Of a DNA stretch of 13,868 nucleotides, positions 2,020 through 13,868 are shown one piece after another. The DNA comes from a bacterium (GTDB lineage: Bacteria > DRYD01), in assembly GCA_039630415.1 (NCBI GenBank), contig JBCNVB010000009.1:1-13868 (forward strand). The letters are read 5' to 3'. How positions within the stretch are numbered: the stretch's first letter is position 1; each line of letters opens with the position of its first letter. The notes under the pieces were generated by a model. It did not search any database. It was not told the origin of the DNA and was given only the letters and a program-made list of their open reading frames with translations. The position numbers and the translations under genes were made by a program.

Positions 2020-2113
2020 TTTGTTAATTTGTAAGTTTCGCTATGTAAAAAAAAATGTAAAAAATTGGTTAGAATCTTTTTAAAAAAGAAAAGCACGGCC
2101 TATTTTATAGGTG
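2020..2113 (+). promoter_or_regulatory. Putative promoter and activator-binding array for ORF 2154..3077 (copy A of a shared motif)
   Basis: TTTGTTAATTTGTAAGTTT (2020-2038), TGT-A9-TGTAA (2044-2060), TTTA(2079-2082)-N15-GCCTATTTTATAGGTG (2098-2113). A parallel arrangement occurs at 11575-11661 on the minus strand. Confidence 0.55.
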
Positions 2114-2153
2114 CAAGATTAAGAAGAATGTCCCCAAAAGGGAGGGGGAGTGT

Positions 2154-3077
2154 ATGACTTATATTTACGGGTCTGATAACCCAATTAGTAGGTTTCCTGG
2201 TAACATTTATCATGGAAGAATCCATAAATCTCCGAGTGCAATTCCTTCCAAACCTGGTACAATCCCTAAAAACCCAGCTATTGATAATGAAAAACCAACG
2301 ATAACACGTCCGCTTTTGATTATTAGTGGGGACTTGATCAAAGAATTAGAAAAAGCAGCAGGTAAAGAAGAAAATGAAGAGACTAATCAAACCAATCAAA
2401 CCAACCAAAATAATCAAGCAAACCAGGCTAGCGATAATAAAAGTCAAAAACCTAGGATTGATATGCAAAAAGTAAGAGAACAACTAGAAAAAATCATTAG
2501 AGAAGTAGTTATTCCGAAAATATCAGAAGCTATAACAAAATTTATTCAATCCCTGAAGGATATTATAATAAAATCCGTATCAGCAACAATTAAAGCTTTA
2601 GCAGGTCCTTTAGGAGATGTGCTTTCAAGAGCAGCAGATACAATTTCAAACATAGCTGATCTCATAGATAGTTTTCTTACTAATGGCGCAAGTAAAATTA
2701 AGAAAATTGTAGGGAATAAGTTAATCAGTAGTTTAGATAAGATTGTTTCGGTAGTAGTAGAAGCTGCCAAAATACTAGAAGATGGCAAAGTAAAATTACA
2801 CGAAGTTGTTCAGGCAGTAAGTAGTTTTGGGATTGAAATGGTAGGAGGTTTAATAGGATCAACTATAGGAGGAGCAATAGGATCCTTCATTGGAGGTGTA
2901 GCAGGAGGAGTAACAGCACTAGTAGCAGGCCCGGTTGGAGCAGCTGTGGGGTCAATTATAGGATCTTTTGTTGGAGAAAAATTTGGAGACTGGATGGCTC
3001 CAAAAATTGCTCAATTTTTCGGAGAAGATAGGGTCCTAATAGATTTCACAAAAGCGGCACCTGCTGGAGCTAAATGA
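2154..3077 (+). CDS. Hypothetical protein: Pro-rich disordered N-terminus, N/Q linker, amphipathic helices and a C-terminal glycine-zipper hydrophobic region
   Basis: 307-aa ORF with strong SD GGAGGGGGAG (2141-2150). GxxxG run GGLIGSTIGGAIGSFIGGVAGGVTALVAGPVGAAVGSIIGSFVGEKFG. No classical signal peptide visible. Confidence 0.85.
   Translation: MTYIYGSDNPISRFPGNIYHGRIHKSPSAIPSKPGTIPKNPAIDNEKPTITRPLLIISGDLIKELEKAAGKEENEETNQTNQTNQNNQANQASDNKSQKPRIDMQKVREQLEKIIREVVIPKISEAITKFIQSLKDIIIKSVSATIKALAGPLGDVLSRAADTISNIADLIDSFLTNGASKIKKIVGNKLISSLDKIVSVVVEAAKILEDGKVKLHEVVQAVSSFGIEMVGGLIGSTIGGAIGSFIGGVAGGVTALVAGPVGAAVGSIIGSFVGEKFGDWMAPKIAQFFGEDRVLIDFTKAAPAGAK
2382..2426 (+). repeat. In-frame 9-bp imperfect tandem repeat x5 (TNQ-TNQ-TNQ-NNQ-ANQ)
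   Basis: ACTAATCAA ACCAATCAA ACCAACCAA AATAATCAA GCAAACCAG. Confidence 0.85.
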
Positions 3078-3083
3078 CTGATA

Positions 3084-3157
3084 GGTGGAGCCGAGGGGAT
3101 TTGAACCCCTGACCTTCTCGGTGCAAACGAGACGCTCTCCCGCTGAGCTACGACCCC
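3084..3157 (-). tRNA. tRNA-Ala (anticodon TGC)
   Basis: The reverse complement folds as GGGGTCG TA GCTC AGCGGGA GAGC G TCTCG TT-TGC-AC CGAGA AGGTC AGGGG TTCAAAT CCCCT CGGCTCC A CC. It has the G3:U70 alanine identity pair and discriminator A. The genome reads CC then T, not CCA. Confidence 0.97.
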
Positions 3158-3176
3158 TCATACATACTATTAAACA

Positions 3177-4226
3177 CTACCTCACCAATCCCTTCTCAAA
3201 GATAAAAGGCTTTGAGTAACATCTGTTCTCCAAAACAATATAATCTATAAGACTAGCTGGTGTTATATCGAAAGATGGATTATAAACATCATACTCTTCC
3301 CTTGTTATATAACTATTTTTGAACTTTATTACTTCTTCTTTATTCCTTTGTTCTGGTTCAAAGTTTTCAAGATTAGGTAAATTATAATCTATGGAGCTAC
3401 TGGGGGCTGCAACAATAAAGGGAATTTGATAGTGTCTACACAAAACAGCTAAATTTAGTGTTCCTATTTTATTTGCAGTATCTCCATTTAGAGCTATTCT
3501 ATCTGCTCCAACACATACAACATCCACATATCCTTTTGAAATAACATATGCAGCTGAGTTGTCGGTTATTATCTTAAATTCTATACCTTCTTTATCAAGT
3601 TCCCATGCAGTTAGTCTACTTCCTTGAAGATATGGTCTAGTCTCATCAACCCAAACAAATACTTTACCACCTACTTTTGACAATTGTTGATGAGTGTACT
3701 TTATTATTCCCAGTGCAGTACCTAACCCAATTGTAGCTAAGGATCCAGTATTACAGTGCGTCAGAAAATTTACACTTTTTGTTTCAGATATTTTACTTAA
3801 AATTTTCGACAATAACTCATAACCATTCCTGGAGATATTTAGATTTTTGGTTTCTTCAGAGTGTATTATATCCAATATGAACTTTTTAATTAAGCTTTTG
3901 TACTCAGAAGAACTACCCGTATTGTTTTTTGAGAGTAGATTTTGAAGCTGATTGAAGTAATTAAAGATATTTACTGCGGTAGGTCTTGCTTGTCTTAATA
4001 AATTCATATCTTCAACGAGATTATTACCCAGATAGACCCCAATAAGCGCTACTATACCAATTAAAGGAGCTCCTCTAACTACCATATCTTTTATAACATA
4101 ATAAACATCATGCACCGTTTTTAACTCTACATATTTCTCTTCCAAGGGTAATAATCTTTGGTCTAAAACTAAAAATTGATTATTTTCAAAATCAATTATC
4201 AGATTTTTATACTCTAATTTTTGCAT
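3177..4226 (-). CDS. mtnA: S-methyl-5-thioribose-1-phosphate isomerase
   Basis: Motifs LDQRLLP, MVVRGAPLIG, RPTAVN, LTHCNTGSLAT, DETRPYLQGSRLTAWEL, GADRIALNGDTANKIGT and NPSFDITP. The ATG at 4226 is preferred over the upstream TTG at 4250 used by the ORF track; the start is uncertain. Confidence 0.93.
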   Translation of the reverse strand: MQKLEYKNLIIDFENNQFLVLDQRLLPLEEKYVELKTVHDVYYVIKDMVVRGAPLIGIVALIGVYLGNNLVEDMNLLRQARPTAVNIFNYFNQLQNLLSKNNTGSSSEYKSLIKKFILDIIHSEETKNLNISRNGYELLSKILSKISETKSVNFLTHCNTGSLATIGLGTALGIIKYTHQQLSKVGGKVFVWVDETRPYLQGSRLTAWELDKEGIEFKIITDNSAAYVISKGYVDVVCVGADRIALNGDTANKIGTLNLAVLCRHYQIPFIVAAPSSSIDYNLPNLENFEPEQRNKEEVIKFKNSYITREEYDVYNPSFDITPASLIDYIVLENRCYSKPFIFEKGLVR

Positions 4227-4337
4227 GCTGTTTATATATTTTACATTCAAATAATTTTACCTTGCTTGAAAGCCTACACTCCATAAAACTTAGGGTATAA
4301 GAAGGTAAAGCATTAGATCAAAGAAAATTGTATTATT

Positions 4338-5549
4338 ATGAAAAATGAAATGATAGAGAAAATAATAGCTAATACTCAGGAAGTGATAGAAGTAGAAGAG
4401 TTAAAGAGCAAGATAGATAGAAAGGGTAGATTAAGAGTAAAGTTAGGAATAGACCCTACAGCAAATACAATACATTTAGGTTTTGCTGTAGTTTTGAGGA
4501 AATTCAGATTATTCCAGGATTTGGGTCATGAGACTTACCTGATTTTAGGAGACTTTACAGCCCTAATTGGGGATCCTTCGGGTAGAAATAAAACTAGACC
4601 AATGCTTTCAAAAGAAGAAATCCAAGAAAATTTGAAAACCTACATTCCTCAATTGGGAAAAATAATTGATATATCAAAAACAAAAATAGTATACAATTCC
4701 TCTTGGTTATCAAAATTAACACCAGAACAAATAGTAAGACTATCTTCTAAATATACACTAGCTCAAATGCTAGAAAGAGAAGACTTTAAAAACAGATATA
4801 GATCAAATGAGCCAATATCTCTGCATGAACTACTTTATCCTTTATTCCAAGCTTACGATAGTGTAGAGTTGCAAGCAGATGTAGAATTAGGAGGAATAGA
4901 TCAAAAATTTAATTTCATAGTTACCAGGTACATTCAACAGAGTTTCAATCAAGAGCCAGAAGTAGCGGTTATGATGCCAATTCTAGAAGGTACCGACGGT
5001 ATTAATAAAATGAGCAAATCATTGGGTAATTATATAGGAATAGATGATGAACCAAATGATATGTTCATTAAAATAATGTCCATTCCAGATAACCTAATTA
5101 GAAGATATTTTGAATTATGTACCAATCTTCCACAAGAGACGATTCAAAAGATTATTGACCTAAATCCAAATCCTAGGGATAGTAAGCTAATCTTAGCAAG
5201 GGAAATAGTAAGCATATATCATGGGGAAGAAAAATCACAAAAAGCATATGAGGAATTTATAAACGTTTATTCTAAAAGAGAGTTACCTTCCGAAATACCA
5301 CAGTTCAAAATCCCCCGTTACATAATAGACCAAGAAAACAACCTAAACTTAGTAGAATTATTATACAGCGTGGGTATAGTAGAAAGTAAATCTGAAGCCA
5401 AAAGGCTTCTAGCACAAGGAGGAATATATATTAACGGCAATAGAGTATCCTCAAAAACAATAAAGTACAGCCATCCCCTAATTATAAGAATAGGAAAGTT
5501 TGATTATTACAGTTTAGTACTGGAAGATGAATCTCTTCACAGCTCCTAA
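4338..5549 (+). CDS. tyrS: Tyrosine--tRNA ligase
   Basis: KLGIDPTANTIHLGF (HIGH variant), GDFTALIGDPSG, YPLFQAYDSV, ELGGIDQKFN, KMSKSLGN, and a C-terminal S4-like domain (SKSEAKRLLAQGGIYING). Confidence 0.97.
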   Translation: MKNEMIEKIIANTQEVIEVEELKSKIDRKGRLRVKLGIDPTANTIHLGFAVVLRKFRLFQDLGHETYLILGDFTALIGDPSGRNKTRPMLSKEEIQENLKTYIPQLGKIIDISKTKIVYNSSWLSKLTPEQIVRLSSKYTLAQMLEREDFKNRYRSNEPISLHELLYPLFQAYDSVELQADVELGGIDQKFNFIVTRYIQQSFNQEPEVAVMMPILEGTDGINKMSKSLGNYIGIDDEPNDMFIKIMSIPDNLIRRYFELCTNLPQETIQKIIDLNPNPRDSKLILAREIVSIYHGEEKSQKAYEEFINVYSKRELPSEIPQFKIPRYIIDQENNLNLVELLYSVGIVESKSEAKRLLAQGGIYINGNRVSSKTIKYSHPLIIRIGKFDYYSLVLEDESLHSS

Positions 5550-6114
5550 AGTATTCTCTTCCATATCTAGTTTGACAATACCAGAATATATATACATTCT
5601 TAACTACACCAAAGAATTAATCAAAAAGTATGATCAAGGATTGCTAGACAATACACTTATAAACTATCCCATATTGGTTTTGGAGTTGTCAAAACACGAA
5701 TCTTTGCAGATAGTAGTTAACATTATTCAAAACATAAGTTTTTTTTGTAGAAAGATGGTTAATTTGTCCTTTATACCAGCAATACAAGATATTTATAAAC
5801 TTGTATTTGTAGTTGATCTCGATGGTAATTTTTATAATCTTAAAGCTGAGAATATTATCTACATAAATAGAGAGACTTTATCAGTATTTTTAGGCTTATC
5901 ATATTTTATAGATAGTTTAGAGTCGGATACTTATGATAAGATTGATCTACCAGTAGATCATTCAATAATTAGCCAAATTGTTTCATTGATCTATGAGAAG
6001 AAGGAATATTTGAAAATAGAAGAAAATATTGAATTAGAGCGTAGATACCTATCGTATAAAAGTGTAATGTTTTTAATGCTCGGAACGTCCATAATCATGA
6101 TTAGGAAAGTATGA
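5527..6114 (+). CDS. Hypothetical protein, possibly a highly degenerate and internally deleted ornithine/aspartate carbamoyltransferase-fold protein
   Basis: 195-aa ORF overlapping tyrS by 23 bp and prfA by ATGA. The N- and C-terminal segments resemble OTCase termini by eye, but the catalytic STRT and HPxQ motifs are absent. Confidence refers to it being a CDS; the family call is much weaker. Confidence 0.7.
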   Translation: MNLFTAPKVFSSISSLTIPEYIYILNYTKELIKKYDQGLLDNTLINYPILVLELSKHESLQIVVNIIQNISFFCRKMVNLSFIPAIQDIYKLVFVVDLDGNFYNLKAENIIYINRETLSVFLGLSYFIDSLESDTYDKIDLPVDHSIISQIVSLIYEKKEYLKIEENIELERRYLSYKSVMFLMLGTSIIMIRKV

Positions 6115-7202
6115 ATGAGATTCTTCTAAAAATATATCAAACCAGAAAAAATTCTTTAGAAAAACTCGAAGAAAAAATAAATCAAATAGATGACTTTACC
6201 AGCGAAAATTATATAAAGCTTATAAAAGAGAAGAATGCCGCTCAAGAATATGTTGATCTTTTCGAAAAGTATAGAAGAAAAATTCAAGATATCCAAGATG
6301 CAGAGGAACTTATAAAAACAGAGAAAGATCAAGAAATGAGAAAATTTTATCAAGAGGAAATAGAAAAACTTTCCACAGAGATGAAAGAGATAGAGAATCA
6401 ACTATGGAATTTGGTTGTAGAAGAAGAGGAAGAGGATAGTAGAAATGTAATAGTAGAGATTAGAGCAGGTACAGGAGGAGAAGAAGCAGCCTTATTCGCA
6501 GCAGATTTGTTTAGAATGTACCAAAAATTCGCAGATAAAATGAAATTTAAAATAGAAATTCTAAGTACTAACTACACTGATCTAGGTGGAATAAAGGAAA
6601 TTTCATTTTTAGTTAGTGGTAAAAATGCTTATAAAATTTTTAAGTATGAAAGTGGAACCCATAGGGTACAAAGAGTTCCAATAACAGAGGCAAGTGGGAG
6701 AATTCACACATCTACAGCTACCGTAATTGTCCTACCAGAAATTGAAGAAAAAGAGGTAGTAATAAGAGATGATGAGATAGAGATGGAAACTTTTAAAGCT
6801 GGAGGGCCAGGAGGCCAAAATGTAAATAAAAACGAATGTGCAGTAAGATTAAGACATTTACCAACAGGAATAGTGGTAACCTGTGCAGACGAAAGAAGTC
6901 TTCATCAAAATAAACTTAAAGCTCTCAAAATACTACGAGCTAAAATAGTACAACTACAAAAAGAAAAACAGGAAGAAGAAATTCAAAAACAGAGAAGACA
7001 ACAAGTAAAAACAGGTGACAGAAGTGAAAAAATCAGAACCTATAATTTCCCCCAAAATAGAGTGACGGATCACAGAGTAAACCTAACTATTCAAAACTTA
7101 GAATACATCCTAGAAGGAAATCTAGAACCAATAATTCAAGAACTTCAAAAAGCTGAAATTTTCAAAAAAATACAAGAAATCAAGGAAAAGATAGAAACTT
7201 AA
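6111..7202 (+). CDS. prfA: Peptide chain release factor 1
   Basis: EIRAGTGGEEAALFA, KYESGTHRVQRVP-I-TE (RF1-type PxT), GPGGQNVN, GDRSEKIRTYNFPQNRVTDHR. Confidence 0.97.
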   Translation: MNEILLKIYQTRKNSLEKLEEKINQIDDFTSENYIKLIKEKNAAQEYVDLFEKYRRKIQDIQDAEELIKTEKDQEMRKFYQEEIEKLSTEMKEIENQLWNLVVEEEEEDSRNVIVEIRAGTGGEEAALFAADLFRMYQKFADKMKFKIEILSTNYTDLGGIKEISFLVSGKNAYKIFKYESGTHRVQRVPITEASGRIHTSTATVIVLPEIEEKEVVIRDDEIEMETFKAGGPGGQNVNKNECAVRLRHLPTGIVVTCADERSLHQNKLKALKILRAKIVQLQKEKQEEEIQKQRRQQVKTGDRSEKIRTYNFPQNRVTDHRVNLTIQNLEYILEGNLEPIIQELQKAEIFKKIQEIKEKIET

Positions 7203-7205
7203 AAA

Positions 7206-8009
7206 ATGGAAATACAAGTTTTCAAAAAATTTGCTCAAAAGTTCCCGGAATACTACAAGATAAAAAACCCGAACTTTCTCATAATGACCAAATACTATTT
7301 ACGAAAACCAACATTTAAATACCTATGGTACCTGTTTTACAAGAATCCCTTGAGAATACTTTATAATCTTTTTGTGAATGTTTTACCTTTACTGGTTTGG
7401 GAATTATTCAAAAAATTAATGAACGGGAACTCAAAGATAGATTCATATGCGGATATAGGTAAAGAAAAGCTTATAGATTATTTTAGTAAGGGTCAGGGTT
7501 TTATTACTATAAGTTATTGTCAAAAGCCGTTTAAGTGCCCAGATGGTAGATTTTCTACCAAATGTACTGCTAAATATGATGTATGTCAGTCCTGTTTCTT
7601 ATCAAAAATCAAGGCTAGAGCTGATCAACTAGGACTGGATTACTACATAGTTCTTGGAGATTATGACAGCGTTTGGAATATACTTAAAAACCAGTTTCTT
7701 AAGCGTAAACATGGTGGATATGTTTTGACAGTTTGTGTTATGGTTCTAAATGTAATTAAGTACTTGTCACCTCTATTTGGTTTTAGGGGTTTAATAGTGC
7801 CTTTTACAAAGGGCGAATGTAAAACTTTAGCAGCTTACGAACTAGCAGAGTTTGGATATAAAAACGTTGAAACTGACATTTCAGACAAGAATAAAAACCT
7901 TTTACTTGAAATCTTAGATCAAGCAATAAAAAAGAAATATTCGATGAATTTCGAAAAAACAGGAGGTAACTATGAAAAACAATTCACTCAAATTCAAATT
8001 ACTAACTAA
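7206..8009 (+). CDS. Cys-rich putative metal-binding protein, DUF116-like
   Basis: Pattern SYCQKPFKCP..KC..CQSCFLSKIKARADQLGLDYYIVLG..LTVC..GECKT resembles the DUF116 Cys arrangement. A hydrophobic N-terminal segment is present. Confidence 0.65.
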   Translation: MEIQVFKKFAQKFPEYYKIKNPNFLIMTKYYLRKPTFKYLWYLFYKNPLRILYNLFVNVLPLLVWELFKKLMNGNSKIDSYADIGKEKLIDYFSKGQGFITISYCQKPFKCPDGRFSTKCTAKYDVCQSCFLSKIKARADQLGLDYYIVLGDYDSVWNILKNQFLKRKHGGYVLTVCVMVLNVIKYLSPLFGFRGLIVPFTKGECKTLAAYELAEFGYKNVETDISDKNKNLLLEILDQAIKKKYSMNFEKTGGNYEKQFTQIQITN

Positions 8010-8850
8010 AATAATCATTTCAGTCATTTTAGGTTTAGTATTATTCACATTTGTCTATTCCAACTCAGCATGGAAGATAAGAATAAAAGGAATAACAAGA
8101 GAAGTTAATACTAATCCGATAATAAAAGGAACATCAGTTTTTGTAGATATATACGATTTGAGTAATCTCTTCAAAATAGACTATGAAGTTAACCTAACAA
8201 GAAAATTAATAACTTTCTATAGGGATGTATCGATCACTGTGGAGAAGCCGGAAGAAAAGCAAGTAGAAAAGCCGATAGAAAAACCATCTGAAAAACAGCT
8301 TGAAAATCCTCCACAAAAACTAAACTCTCTTATGCTGAATAAAATAAATGCTATAAAAACTGTATTGATAGTTAATGCAATAAATGAAGTCAAAGAAATT
8401 GAAGATAATAATTACAGTACTTACTCTGAGGATATAGAAAATGTTCAGAAAGTATTGAATTCTTACTTTTCGGAAAAAGGTTTTAAGAGTATAGTGATCG
8501 ACAATAATTTTAGAATAGATAAGCTTGAAATACCAACCATAGTTAGATACTTAAAAGAAAAAGATATAGATGGTGCAATAGTACCAGTATTAAAAAAATA
8601 CTACTATTATGAAAAAGATGGCAATAATTTGGTTCCCACGGTTGAGTTACAGATAAACTATGTTCTAGTAAACCAAGCAGGTGAAATCGTATTTTTCAAT
8701 GTTCAGAATATAATCAGAAATTTAGCCATTATCTCAAGTAGTTCAGTTAGATATAGAAAATCAAAATTATTAGATCTTGTTAGAATGTCAGTAGATTTAT
8801 TTATTAGAGACTTTAACGAATATGTGCTAATCCTATCACAGGAGGGTTAA
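7972..8850 (+). CDS. Exported or membrane-anchored protein with a copper-amine-oxidase-N/stalk-like domain, an EKP linker and a C-terminal alpha/beta domain
   Basis: SD AGGAGG. Basic N-terminus plus hydrophobic IIISVILGLVLFTFVYSNSA. PIIKGTSVFVDIYDLSNLFKIDYEVNLTRKLITF resembles the stalk-domain pattern PIIxxGRTLVPLRxIxExLGxxVxWD. Confidence 0.7.
   Translation: MKNNSLKFKLLTKIIISVILGLVLFTFVYSNSAWKIRIKGITREVNTNPIIKGTSVFVDIYDLSNLFKIDYEVNLTRKLITFYRDVSITVEKPEEKQVEKPIEKPSEKQLENPPQKLNSLMLNKINAIKTVLIVNAINEVKEIEDNNYSTYSEDIENVQKVLNSYFSEKGFKSIVIDNNFRIDKLEIPTIVRYLKEKDIDGAIVPVLKKYYYYEKDGNNLVPTVELQINYVLVNQAGEIVFFNVQNIIRNLAIISSSSVRYRKSKLLDLVRMSVDLFIRDFNEYVLILSQEG
8239..8310 (+). repeat. In-frame 12-bp imperfect tandem repeat x6 (xEKP/xEKQ linker)
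   Basis: VEKP EEKQ VEKP IEKP SEKQ LENP, encoded by GTGGAGAAGCCG GAAGAAAAGCAA GTAGAAAAGCCG ATAGAAAAACCA TCTGAAAAACAG CTTGAAAATCCT. Confidence 0.7.
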
Positions 8851-8853
8851 AAA

Positions 8854-9615
8854 ATGAATTACCAAGATAACGATTACCAAGATAACGAGTACGAAGATAA
8901 CGAGTACAAACAAGAGGATATAACAGAAGAGGTTAAACCCCCATCAGCAGACTTTAAATTCAAAGAAAAAAGAAAAGAAGAAAGAAGAGTTCTAAATCCA
9001 GCTAGGTTAGTAAAGGTAGTAATTTATTATGATAATGATCTTGTGATAGAAAAGTGGGTAAGTGTAGTAGACGTATCAAGGCACGGAATGAAAATAATAC
9101 TCGACATACCTTTAAAATTAGCAGATAATGTTAAGATTGATTTTTATACTTCCAAAGAACCTGTATCCACAGAAGCAAGAATAGCTTGGTGTAAAGAGCT
9201 AGTTAGAGGTTCAGGATTGTTTGCTGCAGGACTAGATCTAGCCAAACTTAGTCAAGAAAATTACGAAATAATCAATAATTTTCTTATGAATTTTGCACCG
9301 TTTGAGGAAAGAAAAGCAGTTAGAGTAAAAAAACCTTTCCTTGTTGAGCTTCGCACAGAAAAAGAAACCAAAAGATTCTACACATATGCAGTGGATTTAT
9401 CTATAACAGGAATGAGAATTATTAGTGATTTTGAGCTAGATGCTGATGATATCGTACTTATTAAAGCTATATTAGGGCCTGATCAGACAGGATATATCAA
9501 AGCCAGAATAGTATGGCAACAAACTAAAAGCTTCGGAGTTATGATAGGAATTAACTTTATAGAAGCTAGTAATGAAGATATCAAAAAAATTAGTGACTTC
9601 ATATATGGAACATGA
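8854..9615 (+). CDS. Tandem PilZ-domain protein (putative c-di-GMP receptor)
   Basis: Two complete PilZ signatures: RKEER..DVSRHGMKI..ARIAW..GLDL and RKAVR..DLSITGMRI..ARIVW..GINF. SD AGGAGGG. Confidence 0.9.
   Translation: MNYQDNDYQDNEYEDNEYKQEDITEEVKPPSADFKFKEKRKEERRVLNPARLVKVVIYYDNDLVIEKWVSVVDVSRHGMKIILDIPLKLADNVKIDFYTSKEPVSTEARIAWCKELVRGSGLFAAGLDLAKLSQENYEIINNFLMNFAPFEERKAVRVKKPFLVELRTEKETKRFYTYAVDLSITGMRIISDFELDADDIVLIKAILGPDQTGYIKARIVWQQTKSFGVMIGINFIEASNEDIKKISDFIYGT
8860..8907 (+). repeat. In-frame 15-bp tandem repeat x3 (YQDND YQDNE YEDNE Y)
   Basis: TACCAAGATAACGAT TACCAAGATAACGAG TACGAAGATAACGAG TAC. Confidence 0.9.
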
Positions 9616-11135
9616 GTAAAGTGTATATAACAACACCTATATATTATCCAAACTCGGATCCACATGTAGGTACAGCATATACCACTATAGTAGCAGATTT
9701 CTTAGCAAGATACTATAGACAAAGAGGAAAAACAGTTTTCTACTTAACAGGAACTGATGAAAACAGTGTCAAAGTTGAAGAAGCTGCACAAAAACTTAAT
9801 AAACCTACAAAACAGTATGTAGACGAAATGGCAAGTATCTTTAGGGAAATATGGCAAAAATTAAATATCAGCTACGATAAATTCATTAGAACTACTGATG
9901 ATTACCATATTCAAACTGCTCAGTTTGTATTTCAGAAACTTTATGAAAAAGGATATATTTACAAGAGTTATTATGAGGGGTGGTACTGTAATAGTTGTGA
10001 AACTTTTTGGCCCTCATCTAAACTCGGAGATGAAAAAGTTTGTCCAAACATAGAGTGCAGAAAACCACTCACAATTGTTAAGGAAGATAATTATTTTTTC
10101 AAATTGTCAGATTTTCAAGAAAAACTTATTAAGTATTACGAGCAAAATCCAGATTCAATTTTTCCCAAAACACGATATAATGAAGTTTTATCTTTTATCA
10201 AAATGGGTCTTCAAGATATTTCAGTTAGCAGAAAAAACATAGAATGGGGAATAAAAGTTCCTTTTGACCCTAACTACACGATATATGTCTGGATAGATGC
10301 TTTGACGAACTACATTAGTGGCATAGGATATCCATATAATTTTGAAGAGGAATATTGGCAAAATGTTTATCATATAATGGGGAAAGACATTATAAGGTTT
10401 CATGCGGTAATTTGGCCTTCGATCCTGCTTGCATTAGGATTAGAACCTCCAAAAAAACTCATAGTTCACGGATGGCTTACTACTCCCGAAAATAAGAAAA
10501 TATCTAAATCAACAGGCGGAGATATATTCAAACTAAGAGAATTCATCTCAAATAACCCTGAACATATGATCATGGGACTGAGATACTACTTGTTAAAAGA
10601 AGGTAGTTTTGGAGAAGATATACCAATTAGTGTAGAAAGATATGTTCAGATTTACAACTCAGATTTGGCTAATAATGTAGGAAACTTGCTTTCAAGAATT
10701 GTAGCTTTAATACAAAAAAATCTTGAAAGTAAAGTATATAAAAAATCTTCACTGGAATTTATACCAACTCTTTACTCACAAGTTTTGAAAGAATACAACA
10801 AATATGTAGAAAACTTTGAATTTTCTAAGGCTATGGATATTATAATAGATTTCAGTAACCATCTGAATAAAAAGATAGAAGAAAATAGACCATGGGAAAT
10901 GAAGAATCAAAAAGATAAGTTAAACGATTTGATGTTCGAACTATGTTTAGGTTTAGTTGGTATATTTACTTTTCTTTATCCTGCTATACCTTATTCGAGT
11001 TACCAGGCACTTAATCAATTAGGTTTAGAGAAAATTTTAGATAAAGCTAGTTTTAATGTATCTGACTTGTATTTAGATGGTATTGAATCCTTCGAGATAA
11101 GGAGTAGGCAGGTACTTTTTCCTGCGATAAAATAG
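9612..11135 (+). CDS. metG: Methionine--tRNA ligase, short form without the C-terminal tRNA-binding appendix
   Basis: YITTPIYYPN, HVGT (HIGH variant), TGTDE, FIRTTD, Zn knuckle CNSC..CPNIEC, YVWIDAL, GKDIIRFH, KISKS, DLANNVGNLLSR. 507 aa. Confidence 0.97.
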   Translation: MSKVYITTPIYYPNSDPHVGTAYTTIVADFLARYYRQRGKTVFYLTGTDENSVKVEEAAQKLNKPTKQYVDEMASIFREIWQKLNISYDKFIRTTDDYHIQTAQFVFQKLYEKGYIYKSYYEGWYCNSCETFWPSSKLGDEKVCPNIECRKPLTIVKEDNYFFKLSDFQEKLIKYYEQNPDSIFPKTRYNEVLSFIKMGLQDISVSRKNIEWGIKVPFDPNYTIYVWIDALTNYISGIGYPYNFEEEYWQNVYHIMGKDIIRFHAVIWPSILLALGLEPPKKLIVHGWLTTPENKKISKSTGGDIFKLREFISNNPEHMIMGLRYYLLKEGSFGEDIPISVERYVQIYNSDLANNVGNLLSRIVALIQKNLESKVYKKSSLEFIPTLYSQVLKEYNKYVENFEFSKAMDIIIDFSNHLNKKIEENRPWEMKNQKDKLNDLMFELCLGLVGIFTFLYPAIPYSSYQALNQLGLEKILDKASFNVSDLYLDGIESFEIRSRQVLFPAIK

Positions 11136-11173
11136 TTTTCTTAAAGTTTTACTATAAAAGCTATAAAAAATAT

Positions 11174-11199
11174 AAGAGGGGCTTTAGTAAGCCCCTCTT
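11174..11199. terminator. Bidirectional intrinsic terminator between convergent metG and ORF 11239..11547
   Basis: Perfect 11-bp stem AAGAGGGGCTT-TAGT-AAGCCCCTCTT. T-rich tracts follow on both strands (TTTCGCTTTT on plus, TTATATTTTTT on minus). Confidence 0.9.
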
Positions 11200-11238
11200 T
11201 CGCTTTTGCTTTTTTAACTTTCTTGTTATTCTACTTAT

Positions 11239-11547
11239 CTATCCACCGCCGCCGCCACCAAGAGCTTTTGTCCATTGTTGAGCTATTTGCGATTGAGTTT
11301 TGAATGCGTTCATTCTGTTTTCTTCATGCATCTTTCTTATTGCTCTGTTTGTATCTAGGATCATTTTTTGCATTTCTTGTTGGTGCTTCTTTTCAGAGAG
11401 CATATCAGATAGCATGATGTTTTCTAGCTCTCTTCTGTTTTCATTACTAATAGACCATGCTCTTGCTCCGTTTATAAATGGGCTCCATGCTCTTTCTGTT
11501 GCCAAAGGCAACCCTTGTGTAGGATCAAACCATCCAAATATTGACAT
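11239..11547 (-). CDS. Small hypothetical helical protein (Q/M/E-rich) with a C-terminal hexa-glycine
   Basis: 102-aa ORF with a strong SD AAGGAGGTG (11554-11562), its own upstream region and a downstream terminator. Confidence 0.85.
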   Translation of the reverse strand: MSIFGWFDPTQGLPLATERAWSPFINGARAWSISNENRRELENIMLSDMLSEKKHQQEMQKMILDTNRAIRKMHEENRMNAFKTQSQIAQQWTKALGGGGGG

Positions 11548-11574
11548 CTTTTACACCTCCTTGCTTATCGTGTT

Positions 11575-11661
11575 CACTTTATATATGTCATAAAATCCCA
11601 AAAATTAAATACCAACCCGGAAAAGTTAACATTTTTTTTACAAAACCTGTAAGCTAACAAA
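11575..11661 (-). promoter_or_regulatory. Putative promoter and activator-binding array for ORF 11239..11547 (copy B of the shared motif)
   Basis: On the minus strand: TTTGTTAGCTTACAGGTTT (11661-11643), TGT-A8-TGTTAA (11642-11626), TTAA(11608-11605)-N15-GACATATATAAAGTG (11589-11575). Confidence 0.55.
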
Positions 11662-11693: not shown

Positions 11694-12830
11694 GTGAACT
11701 TCGAAGTAGTAATAACAGGCAATAGCTTTGCAACTAATAGTCTAATTTTTCTTCTTAACACCCACTTTAACATAAACATAGCAAATATAGTACCTGAAAT
11801 TTCAATGATAAGGGATATTAAACTATTTATGCCAGCAGCAACTCTTAAAAACCTCTCCATACCACTAAAAAAACTCTCAGATAAAAATGTAGCTTCTTTC
11901 AACAAAATACACCTCTTCCTTTACAATAATCAAAGAATACTCTCCCATAACAAAAAAATCATAGTATCAACTTCCCTCGAAAAACTAAAAAAAATACTAC
12001 TTAGCCTTTCCCCTAAACCTAAAAACATAAAAATTTTTCAAAATTCAATAAACGAAATATTCTACAATAACGACAAATTTTACATAAAATTGTCAAACAA
12101 CAAAATACTTACAACTCATTACCTCATAATCGGGGATGACTTTTGGGGTAATAGCTGGAATTTTATAAACTACAAACCCCATCACACAGGAGGATGGATA
12201 GTTAAAATACCCAACACTAAATCAATATCAACCATACCCTTCATAGCCCTAGGCTACTCAAAAAAAAGTCTAATTCTATCAGACAACCAAAACCTAATCT
12301 TTTCTAAACACATCGATAAAGAATATTCCATAGAAAACCTAATCATCAACTTTCTGACAAATAATCAGATCATAAAAAATATCATCCTATCAGATTGGAA
12401 TAAATATGTTCTACCCTTCTCAACCAAAGAACAAAACTTTCCAGAACACCTAAAGAATAAAAAAATATTCATCATTACAGAATATTTGGGCCTAACAAGT
12501 TGTTTATTACCAGATTTTACCTATCTAACATCCTTTCTAGTGAAAGAATTCATCGTAAATATCGATAAAACAGTTAACTCTTTCAAAGATTTCATCCCCT
12601 ACATAAATAAAGCAATTCAGTATAATCAAATATTTCTCAAAATAAATAACCTTATAAACAACTTTCCCTTGATGTTTTTTAATAACTCAGAAAAAGATGA
12701 AATACTAGTTGATTTACTTCTAGGAAACATAACCCCTTCAGAAGCAGATAGAATGTTTAAACAAATATTTGAATTCTACGATAGAAGATTTGAAGTAGTT
12801 TTATCAGCTAGGGCTCAAGAGGAAGAATAA
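11694..12830 (+). CDS. Degenerate FAD-dependent oxidoreductase-like protein (geranylgeranyl reductase / aromatic hydroxylase fold)
   Basis: GTG start, 378 aa. FEVVITGNSFAT sits at the DVxIVGxGPAG position, THYLIIGDD at the ADG motif, and IFIITEYLGLTSCLLPDF at the LLVGDAAGxxxPxxGEG motif. All three motifs are eroded. Confidence 0.6.
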   Translation: MNFEVVITGNSFATNSLIFLLNTHFNINIANIVPEISMIRDIKLFMPAATLKNLSIPLKKLSDKNVASFNKIHLFLYNNQRILSHNKKIIVSTSLEKLKKILLSLSPKPKNIKIFQNSINEIFYNNDKFYIKLSNNKILTTHYLIIGDDFWGNSWNFINYKPHHTGGWIVKIPNTKSISTIPFIALGYSKKSLILSDNQNLIFSKHIDKEYSIENLIINFLTNNQIIKNIILSDWNKYVLPFSTKEQNFPEHLKNKKIFIITEYLGLTSCLLPDFTYLTSFLVKEFIVNIDKTVNSFKDFIPYINKAIQYNQIFLKINNLINNFPLMFFNNSEKDEILVDLLLGNITPSEADRMFKQIFEFYDRRFEVVLSARAQEEE

Positions 12831-13551: not shown

Positions 13552-13868
13552 CTATTCTATTCTTACTGCAAAAAATCTAAAGTCTCCAAGAGCAATACTT
13601 GAAAAATAAGCACCTCTAATGTTAGTAGCTGGAAAAACTCTACTTGTACCTACTATAAACAGCCTACCAAATCGATCTATAATCATATCATTTGCTACAT
13701 CTTCTGCACCTATTCCAGCTATATCATTCAATATCAAATATCCATTATTTCCAAATGAAGTATCTAACTGACCTTGAGAGTTTAATTTAAACAAAACTAT
13801 ACTCTGATCCTGTAATCCTATACTATTTCCAGCTACAAATATCTCACCATTGCTATTTATAGCCAAGC
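13552..13868 (-). CDS. C-terminal part of a delta-60-repeat beta-propeller protein (runs off the window)
   Basis: AINSNGEIFVAG..LFKLNSQGQLDTSFGNNG and IDRFGRLFIVG match the delta-60 repeat pattern (QxDGKIxVAG..RLNxDGSLDxSF). The frame is open to the window edge. Confidence 0.8.
   Translation of the reverse strand, partial: LAINSNGEIFVAGNSIGLQDQSIVLFKLNSQGQLDTSFGNNGYLILNDIAGIGAEDVANDMIIDRFGRLFIVGTSRVFPATNIRGAYFSSIALGDFRFFAVRIE

Follow-up and report, generated by a model that had tools for sequence, protein, structure and literature searches.

The 13,868-bp stretch of DNA analysed here (the window) is the entire contig C31 of genome G000, a 1.40-Mb assembly in 31 contigs with 32% G+C and an estimated completeness of 89%. 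Two orphan open reading frames (ORFs) of this contig, ORF 2154-3077 on the plus strand and ORF 11547-11239 on the minus strand, are preceded by promoters carrying the same sequence box. The two promoters belong to a dispersed regulon that is real and more general than an earlier note on this DNA could see: the same box is present family-wide and is kept upstream of orthologous genes, which places the regulon at the scale of the lineage. Each promoter would be bipartite, combining a box of 17-18 bp, in which an A-tract connects two direct TGTWAA half-sites, with a core that consists of a TTTAAT resembling a −35 and a (C)ATATATAA resembling a −10 (Table 1). If ATATATAA acts as the −10 element, the box would extend from about −69 to −53, with its centre near −61. 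In the explanation that we consider probable as a whole, the box would be bound by a response regulator of the OmpR/PhoB family, a winged-helix protein binding in tandem, which from about −61 would activate the housekeeping-type RNA polymerase as upstream sites of the cyanobacterial regulator RpaB do; boxes at other spacings or in the other orientation might serve repression or action at the −35 region. The excess of the box over chance, its conservation, its spacing and its targets are observed; we infer from sequence the nature of the binding protein, its activating or repressing effect and the position of the transcription start.

The box would mark a family-wide regulon composed of fliF, flhB-flhA, genes for pilin-like proteins, proteases, peptidoglycan hydrolases and a nuclease, many orphans specific to the lineage, and a few housekeeping genes. 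For a deep-branching lineage of uncultivated thermophiles, this provides a concrete cis-regulatory code that can be tested: a regulon is predicted from one 17-bp box, and a candidate regulator is singled out from only four response regulators. No promoter or regulon work was found in the covered part of the literature on Calescamantes, Calescibacter or EM19, within which the supplements of PMC4791363 and PMC11696919 may hold expression data.

Frequency, spacing and conservation of the box

The box has the sequence TGTAAA-AAAAA-TGT(A/T)AA, i.e., two direct hexamers with an 11-nt period; the copy upstream of ORF 11547 (copy B) reads TGTAAA-AAAAA-TGTTAA. The exact box (TGTAAAAAAAATGT) occurs 11 times in the genome versus 0-1 times in 20 order-5 Markov simulations, and a relaxed pattern has 26 matches (0-3 in simulations). 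At a threshold of 14 bits or more, a position weight matrix (PWM) identifies 43 sites, 24 of which are its training sites, versus 2-5 in simulated genomes. The pair of flanking TGT triplets is found at 11 of the 374 runs of eight A, where 1.2 are expected, and across the box sites these two triplets, at their 11-nt period, are nearly invariant. According to a crude ORF map the sites are nearly all intergenic: this is the case for 22 of the 24 matches to TGTWAH-N5-TGTWAH that have at least four A in the spacer, in a genome of which 82% is covered by ORFs of at least 100 amino acids (aa). The element TGT-A8/9-TGTWAA, described in the earlier note as shared by the two promoters (element 2), is thus a genuine motif with copy counts far above those of simulated genomes.

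The same note had reported a core sequence at an identical distance from the box in both promoters (element 3). The offset between the T of the second TGT and the core (2098 and 11589) is indeed exactly 42 nt in the two copies, and every string quoted was recovered at its position. Beyond the window the analysis of the regulon covered G000, four gene families and, in a second genome (G004), 34 of its 35 exact boxes. In the G000 set of 45 sites (the 43 PWM sites plus two A9 variants), 10 of 17 exact TATAAT or TATATA hexamers occurring within 0-89 nt start 36-42 nt past the box, while in G004 the sequence ATATA begins 36-45 nt past the box in 17 of 27 occurrences. The −10-like peak at about 36-45 nt, found in two genomes, bears out the fixed position of the core, and about half of the box sites have this fixed −10 spacing. 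Different arrangements are also present. The box is inverted relative to a gene starting 37-92 nt away at 22 of the 45 sites. A second layout has the box 8 nt ahead of TGnGATAAT, at the valyl-tRNA synthetase (ValRS) gene and at a gene truncated by the end of contig C14, or 14 nt ahead of TATAAT at a tRNA gene. Tandem copies of the box and arrays of at least three half-sites at the 11-nt period complete this repertoire.

The exact box was found in all nine other genomes of the same family, which span two genera, with 7-35 copies each; outside the family it was detected in one genome out of 11 (two copies). A reversed-word control is void for the exact box because the word reads identically backwards. 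The 102-aa protein gene (ORF 11547-11239) has orthologues in 10/10 family genomes, and 10/10 of their usable upstream regions keep the box, a −35-like sequence (TTTTCA, TTTAGT or TTTAAT) and ATATATAA or ATATAATA. In these promoters the spacing from box to ATATATAA is 37-39 nt and the intervening sequence diverges. Conservation extends to fliF, whose upstream box is kept at eight of nine loci (the ninth is interrupted by a contig end), and to flhB (8/10 loci). ORF 2154 has one clear orthologue, in genome G006, with 36% identity and the same C-terminus. An exact box precedes it, at 39 nt from ATATATTT, and about 8 kb separate it from the 102-aa protein gene of that genome, as in the window. The box upstream of nuoL recurs in G004. 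An origin in a repeat or mobile element was rejected: the promoters have only the box and the core in common, and the DNA in between differs.

Candidate regulator, core promoter and competing explanations

In its available part, PMC4168254 gives the WalR/VicR consensus as TGTWAH-N5-TGTWAH and the footprinted nlmC site of S. mutans as TGTAAA-N5-TGTTAA, and describes the PhoB consensus as very similar to that of WalR. The box matches the WalR/VicR consensus exactly in copy B, the spacer of copy A being 6 nt, which agrees with the earlier proposal of an OmpR/PhoB-type direct repeat of 11-bp period. The near-invariant A-tract of the spacer is a lineage-specific feature. Four response regulators are encoded in the genome, two of them with a Trans_reg_C domain; of these two OmpR-family members one is the canonical regulator of contig C8 and the other is encoded at about C6:8442-9125. 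The best candidate for binding the box would be the canonical OmpR-family regulator encoded at G000:C8:30108-30797, whose best NCBIfam scores are obtained with YycF (272.6 bits), MtrA, RpaB and PhoB, and whose best matches among solved structures are RegX3 and MtrA. A WalR/MtrA/RpaB-type regulon would be the way in which this system works.

Several observations weigh against this assignment or against a dedicated regulator in general. The C8 regulator scores below every NCBIfam equivalog cut-off (for YycF, NF040534, 272.6 versus 340 bits), the adjacent 391-aa kinase shows HATPase_c only, with no PAS or HAMP domain recognised, and no box is found near the regulator gene among the sites of at least 14 bits. 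Genes similar to walH, walI or walJ were not seen beside it, the next gene coding for a polysaccharide pyruvyl transferase; with a regulator below cut-off, a kinase without HAMP or PAS and no such neighbours, the system was not filed as WalRK. Boxes are found in both orientations and at several distances from genes, and the run of nine A in copy A gives a 12-nt period (Table 1). The generic TGTWAH-N5-TGTWAH pattern is only mildly enriched, with 46 matches versus 16-40 for other spacings or permuted half-sites, so that the lineage motif depends on its A-tract, which could equally serve DNA bending or recognition by the C-terminal domain of the RNA polymerase alpha subunit (alpha-CTD). Boxes in a region resembling a replication origin (see below) would fit a nucleoid-type protein equally well.

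The core has a sigma-70-like geometry, with the −35-like TTTAAT or TTTTCA 17-18 nt from a TATATA-like −10. The sigma-28 consensus is TAAA-N15-GCCGATAA; its geometry is not found at the box promoters, where no CGA is present. The sigma factors encoded are an RpoD-like protein (its gene is beside dnaG), a SigH-like protein and two SigB/F/G-like proteins. In this 89% complete genome no sigma factor reaches the FliA/WhiG cut-off (the best TIGR02479 score is 104.9 versus 189.6 bits, the best family being SigB/F/G) and no sigma-54 DNA-binding domain was found. The earlier note had combined a dedicated activator with an alternative sigma factor reading a core loosely resembling that of sigma-28/FliA. 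The activator idea is supported by the present data; the sigma-28/FliA-type core is not, and, given the sigma-70-like geometry, the sub-cut-off FliA/WhiG scores and the lack of hits for sigma-54, the alternative-sigma part is unsupported. Two other assignments were discarded: a sigma-54 promoter, because no sigma-54 DNA-binding domain was found and the G-to-G distance in the box is 11 nt rather than 12, and a sigma-H-like AGGAAAA-N12-GAAT in the fliF promoters, because these promoters fit the general layout box-N37-42-ATAWAWAA.

Reading of the compound promoter by an alternative sigma factor (sigma-28-like, SigB/F/G-like or SigH-like) helped by a dedicated activator is nevertheless conceivable. 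The flagellar genes carry the same box, three candidate factors of the latter two types are encoded, and the −10 block ends with ATAA like the −10 of sigma-28 promoters. It is made improbable by the core geometry and profile scores given above and by the presence of the box at promoters of tRNA and aminoacyl-tRNA synthetase genes with TATAAT or TGnGATAAT. These promoters, together with those of atpC and nuoL, would be well explained if the box were a bent A-tract or an element similar to the UP element that marks strong promoters and is read by alpha-CTD or through DNA curvature, with no dedicated regulator. An A8 tract upstream of the −35 in an AT-rich genome and an enrichment that hinges on the A-rich spacer also fit such an element. 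UP elements are A/T-rich sequences at about −40 to −60 (usual zone −59 to −38) read by alpha-CTD, whereas the box, at about −69 to −53 in the main class of promoters, would lie mostly upstream of that zone. It is also found 8-14 nt from the −10, reversed, and in multi-copy arrays. The near-invariant TGT triplets at an 11-nt period argue for base-specific contacts, and the exact match to the consensus of a footprinted regulator points the same way; we regard the UP-like element as unlikely.

Binding of the box by a nucleoid-associated or replication-linked protein, with an architectural enrichment instead of a regulon, would account for the numerous half-sites in the origin-like region and for the presence of the box in both orientations and at variable distances. 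The −10 spacing fixed at about half of the sites, the position of the box kept upstream of particular orthologues across two genera and the functional skew of the targets speak against it, and we give this architectural reading little credence. Chance likeness of AT-rich intergenic regions does hold for one part of the promoter match, the 19-mer that the earlier note had listed as a further shared element (element 1) upstream of the box. Its degenerate word matches the genome at the two window sites only, a uniqueness that carries little weight. A match of at least 14/19 is found in 47 of 990 pairs of 45-nt flanks upstream of boxes (offset up to 8 nt; at least 15/19 in 12 of 990 pairs) and is reached in 90 of 2000 shuffles of the two window flanks, and the 19-mer is missing from the upstream regions of orthologues of either window gene. 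It was treated as a product of chance or base composition and is not supported as a promoter element. A generic sigma-70 consensus scan of the window is likewise uninformative (65 sites versus 62 expected). For elements 2 and 3 chance is already refuted by the box counts, conservation and spacing, which makes it a scarcely credible explanation of the promoter match.

The explanation based on an OmpR/PhoB-family regulator and a sigma-70-like core can be compared with characterised regulatory systems. With the WalR/VicR (YycF) boxes of Firmicutes the box shares identical half-sites, a direct repeat and an 11-nt period, and the two systems have in common an OmpR-family regulator (here with YycF as best NCBIfam score) and NlpC/P60 and Amidase_3 targets. 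Cell-wall hydrolase genes are typical of WalR and MtrA regulons. The system described here differs by its sub-cut-off regulator, its kinase lacking recognised PAS and HAMP domains, the absence of detected walHIJ-like neighbours, the near-invariant A-tract spacer and a regulon that also takes in genes of flagellar type III export, pilins, proteases and orphans, in a distant uncultivated lineage. The resemblance to RpaB and its HLR1 sites in cyanobacteria resides in a global OmpR-family regulon, in HLR1 repeats that contain TTTACA, the complement of TGTAAA, and in an effect that depends on position, sites centred about 50 nt upstream activating and sites near the start repressing (available part of PMC6525291). 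HLR1 differs in being composed of 8-nt repeats with a 2-nt spacer and a 10-nt period, and RpaB targets are photosynthesis genes. PhoB/PhoP, with their Pho boxes, and the actinobacterial MtrA and RegX3 are regulators of the same clade; here, unlike in those systems, no phosphate-uptake genes were seen among the targets and the box is mostly not at the −35. MtrA binds at oriC and at cell-wall hydrolase genes, and the half-sites found here in an origin-like region parallel its binding at oriC.

The region concerned is an approximately 1-kb non-coding segment (G000:C18:85380-86450; positions 80-1150 of locus L167) with at least 17 words similar to DnaA boxes (TTTTCCACA/TGTGGAAAA) in both orientations. 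After the block of DnaA-box-like words comes strongly AT-rich DNA in which TGTAAA, TGTTAA and TTTACA half-sites are closely packed. The region looks like an oriC, yet its neighbours are alaS and an ABC permease gene, and no dnaA is adjacent.

Targets of the box and the flagellar-type export apparatus

Genes in the same orientation as the box start 55-134 nt downstream of it. They include fliF, which is monocistronic and located between aminoacyl-tRNA synthetase genes, flhB-flhA, both window genes, a three-gene cluster of orphans on contig C3, and orphans on C5 (four), C16 and C22. Further members code for an EF-hand protein, a member of the endonuclease/exonuclease/phosphatase family, an HD_5 protein, an Amidase_3/AMIN protein (the box upstream of its gene is weak) and four proteins that are pilin-like or anchored by their N-terminus; atpC and nuoL complete the group. 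In this hand-assembled list 14/21 targets have no Pfam family above cut-off versus 6/40 random genes of at least 100 aa (Fisher p = 1e-4), or 13/20 (p = 2e-4) when one 96-aa target is omitted, so that the targets of the motif are enriched in orphans. In opposite orientation to the box are found two subtilase genes, two genes for clostripain-family peptidases, a gene for an NlpC/P60 hydrolase that starts 56 nt from the box, a FlgB-like gene, a lysine aminomutase gene, about ten orphans and the genes of three paralogues with a HELGH motif. The targets thus contain cell-wall hydrolase genes (NlpC/P60, Amidase_3). The genes of the two clostripains, the two subtilases and the NlpC/P60 hydrolase are located at C14:10478-12325, C23:101175-102614, C17:22863-24293, C5:224786-225847 and C5:191912-192793.

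The earlier note had supposed that the scattered genes might code for substrates or structural parts of a type III or flagellar-like export system encoded elsewhere in the genome. The same box does precede fliF and flhB-flhA, here and in related genomes, and in terms of shared regulation the data support a link between the regulon and a flagellar-type export system. A dedicated regulon is not supported, as the box is also found at nuoL, atpC, ValRS and tRNA genes, partly with other spacings or in opposite orientation. Through the box, dozens of orphans of unknown function are tied to flagellar type III genes, pilins and exo-enzymes, which makes them candidates for cell-surface or secreted roles.

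The genome encodes a flagellar export apparatus: FlhA, FlhB, FliP, FliF, FliG, FliM/N and four rod-type axial proteins were identified, their genes being dispersed singly or in pairs among housekeeping genes. Among the ten genomes of the family none has Flagellin_N or, at cut-off, MotA_ExbB, and no hook-sized axial protein was found, Flg_bbr_C being present only in open frames of 151-277 aa; since these ten genomes are 71-90% complete, flagellin, hook protein and MotA are reported as not found and not as proven absent. The flagellar gene set of the family may end at the rod. For Calescamantes assemblies flagellar genes have been listed and motility inferred (available part of PMC4791363).

A hydrophobic signal peptide is lacking in the subtilases, clostripains, P60 hydrolase and nuclease, whose N-termini resemble those of the orphans in their high content of Asn, Thr, Ser and Ile. 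In a set of 13 soluble targets, picked after the fact, residues 2-31 consist of N/S/T/Q/G/P at 46% versus 29% in 1199 other predicted proteins (p = 2.6e-7), and are poorer in charged and hydrophobic residues. Type III substrates typically have polar, disordered N-termini, a feature that is not specific to them. It is plausible that the orphans are such substrates. A bolder reading, possible but in our judgement rather doubtful, is that across the family the flagellum was reduced to a dedicated protein exporter (gate, rings and rod) and that the box co-regulates fliF, flhBA and about thirty substrates. These would include the subtilases, clostripains, NlpC/P60 hydrolase and nuclease without signal peptide, and fast-evolving orphans like ORF 2154, with polar N-termini and glycine-zipper tails. 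If this were true, they could together serve a small-genome hot-spring heterotroph as an arsenal for feeding or attack. Secretion of co-regulated substrates by a rod-only apparatus would exemplify, in a free-living organism, the transition from a flagellum to a secretion machine, which is usually inferred from phylogeny only.

Scattered non-flagellar genes that are co-regulated with flagellar genes and whose products lack Sec signals are known in Campylobacter, where the Fed, Cia and FspA proteins are flagellar co-expressed and secreted by the flagellar type III secretion system. Those genes have sigma-28 or sigma-54 promoters and the bacterium a full motile flagellum, whereas the genes described here have a response-regulator-type box, and flagellin, hook and stator were not found. 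Reduced flagellar basal bodies are kept as exporters in, e.g., Buchnera. The gene set is comparable (export gate, MS and C rings and rod without flagellin), with the differences that the lineage described here is thermophilic and free-living, that its candidate substrates form a large co-regulated group, and that no hook-sized protein was found either.

Within the regulon, tandem HELGH paralogues (366, 362 and 735 aa, the longest with an internal duplication) are encoded at C5:114456-119627 (locus L018). Boxes in inverted orientation are found 56-59 nt ahead of the genes of the first and the third paralogue and of a 190-aa orphan gene that follows the array. HELGH can be read as a zinc-metallopeptidase-like motif; a Pfam search with two of the paralogues named no peptidase family.

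The window and its two orphan proteins

A 75%-identical homologue of the 102-aa protein bears the NCBI name Candidatus Calescibacterium sp., and the closest methionyl-tRNA synthetase genes of the species collection have only 36-48% identity. From its start the window contains a transketolase gene (−), ORF 2154-3077 (+) and an mtnA-like IF-2B gene (−), and later metG (+), ORF 11547-11239 (−) and further genes. Others encode TyrS, a release factor and a PilZ protein; these three names were read from translations, and among them Pfam confirmed PilZ only. The gene map confirms that both ORFs of interest are oriented opposite to their neighbours, as the earlier note had stated. No terminator was detected downstream of ORF 2154-3077. 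The positions of promoter elements, genes and the terminator found near metG are listed in Table 1.

Table 1. Promoter elements, orphan genes and terminator in the window
Feature	Position	Strand	Basis or remark
Element 1 (19-mer), copy A; unsupported as element	2020..2038	+	flank-pair and orthologue comparisons
Distal box, copy A, TGTAAAAAAAAATGTAAA (TGT-A9-TGTAAA)	2044..2061	+	two direct TGTWAA half-sites; 12-nt period and 6-nt spacer because the A run has 9 bases; consensus TGTWAH-N5-TGTWAH (available part of PMC4168254)
−35-like TTTAAA, copy A	2079..2084	+	predicted from sequence; TTTAAT, TTTTCA or TTTAGT at the equivalent position of other box promoters
Core, copy A, GCCTATTTTATAGGTG; −10-like ATTTTATA at 2102-2109	2098..2113	+	positional peak of −10-like hexamers 36-42 nt past the box
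Orphan gene, 307 aa	2154..3077	+	Shine-Dalgarno sequence and ATG at 2154; G006 orthologue with exact box
Bidirectional intrinsic terminator, strong	11174..11199	.	11-bp stem with 6 GC pairs; between metG and the 102-aa protein gene
Conserved small gene, 102 aa	11239..11547	-	Shine-Dalgarno sequence and ATG at 11547
Core, copy B, GACATATATAAAGTG; −10-like ATATATAA at 11586-11579	11575..11589	-	ATATATAA/ATATAATA then GTGAA/TTGAAG kept in orthologues
−35-like TTTAAT, copy B	11604..11609	-	predicted; orthologues carry TTTTCA or TTTAGT there
Distal box, copy B, TGTAAAAAAAATGTTAA (TGT-A8-TGTTAA)	11626..11642	-	kept upstream of 10/10 orthologous loci
Element 1 (19-mer), copy B; unsupported as element	11643..11661	-	between the box and a divergent ORF at 11694

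The 307-aa protein is a fast-evolving orphan without signal peptide; its N-terminus is polar, its middle part is helical, and a glycine zipper (Gly-zipper_Omp, 18 bits, below the Pfam cut-off) is found at the C-terminus. A word-seeded homologue search found the protein itself only, and all atlas matches are below 0.9, with TM (template modelling) scores below 0.5, save for short glycine-zipper stretches. It has a 105-residue segment in common with a box-bearing orphan of the C3 cluster (C3_88493; E = 2e-5). The 102-aa protein has 45 homologues, all at least 64% identical and restricted to the lineage. It belongs to no Pfam family, and the best hit of its profile against PDB sequences has E = 0.76. 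In this family the N-terminal 30 residues are variable and polar, and the C-terminal 70 residues, ending with four to six Gly, are nearly invariant. The structure predicted is a single 85-residue helix (residues 13-97; mean predicted local distance difference test score, pLDDT, 79), and the conserved C-terminal helix recurs in a 348-aa protein encoded by another box-bearing gene. The promoter class and the N-termini make an export or cell-surface role the best guess for both window proteins. A FlgM-like anti-sigma role of the 102-aa protein was considered and found no support.

In G004 a second box-bearing protein (loci L109/L114; N-terminus MMPGPGLYGDGAWLSLIRQQQ...) has the W-L-x-x-x-RQQQ module of the 102-aa family, which hints at an N-terminal module common to different cargo-like proteins. 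In the operon upstream of metG the window encodes a two-domain PilZ protein (8854-9615) preceded by two orphan ORFs (7206-8850); together with the four response regulators of the genome, the PilZ protein suggests cyclic di-GMP signalling. At its other end the contig terminates within a minus-strand gene (13552-13866) that codes for SBBP/DUF5122 beta-propeller repeats.

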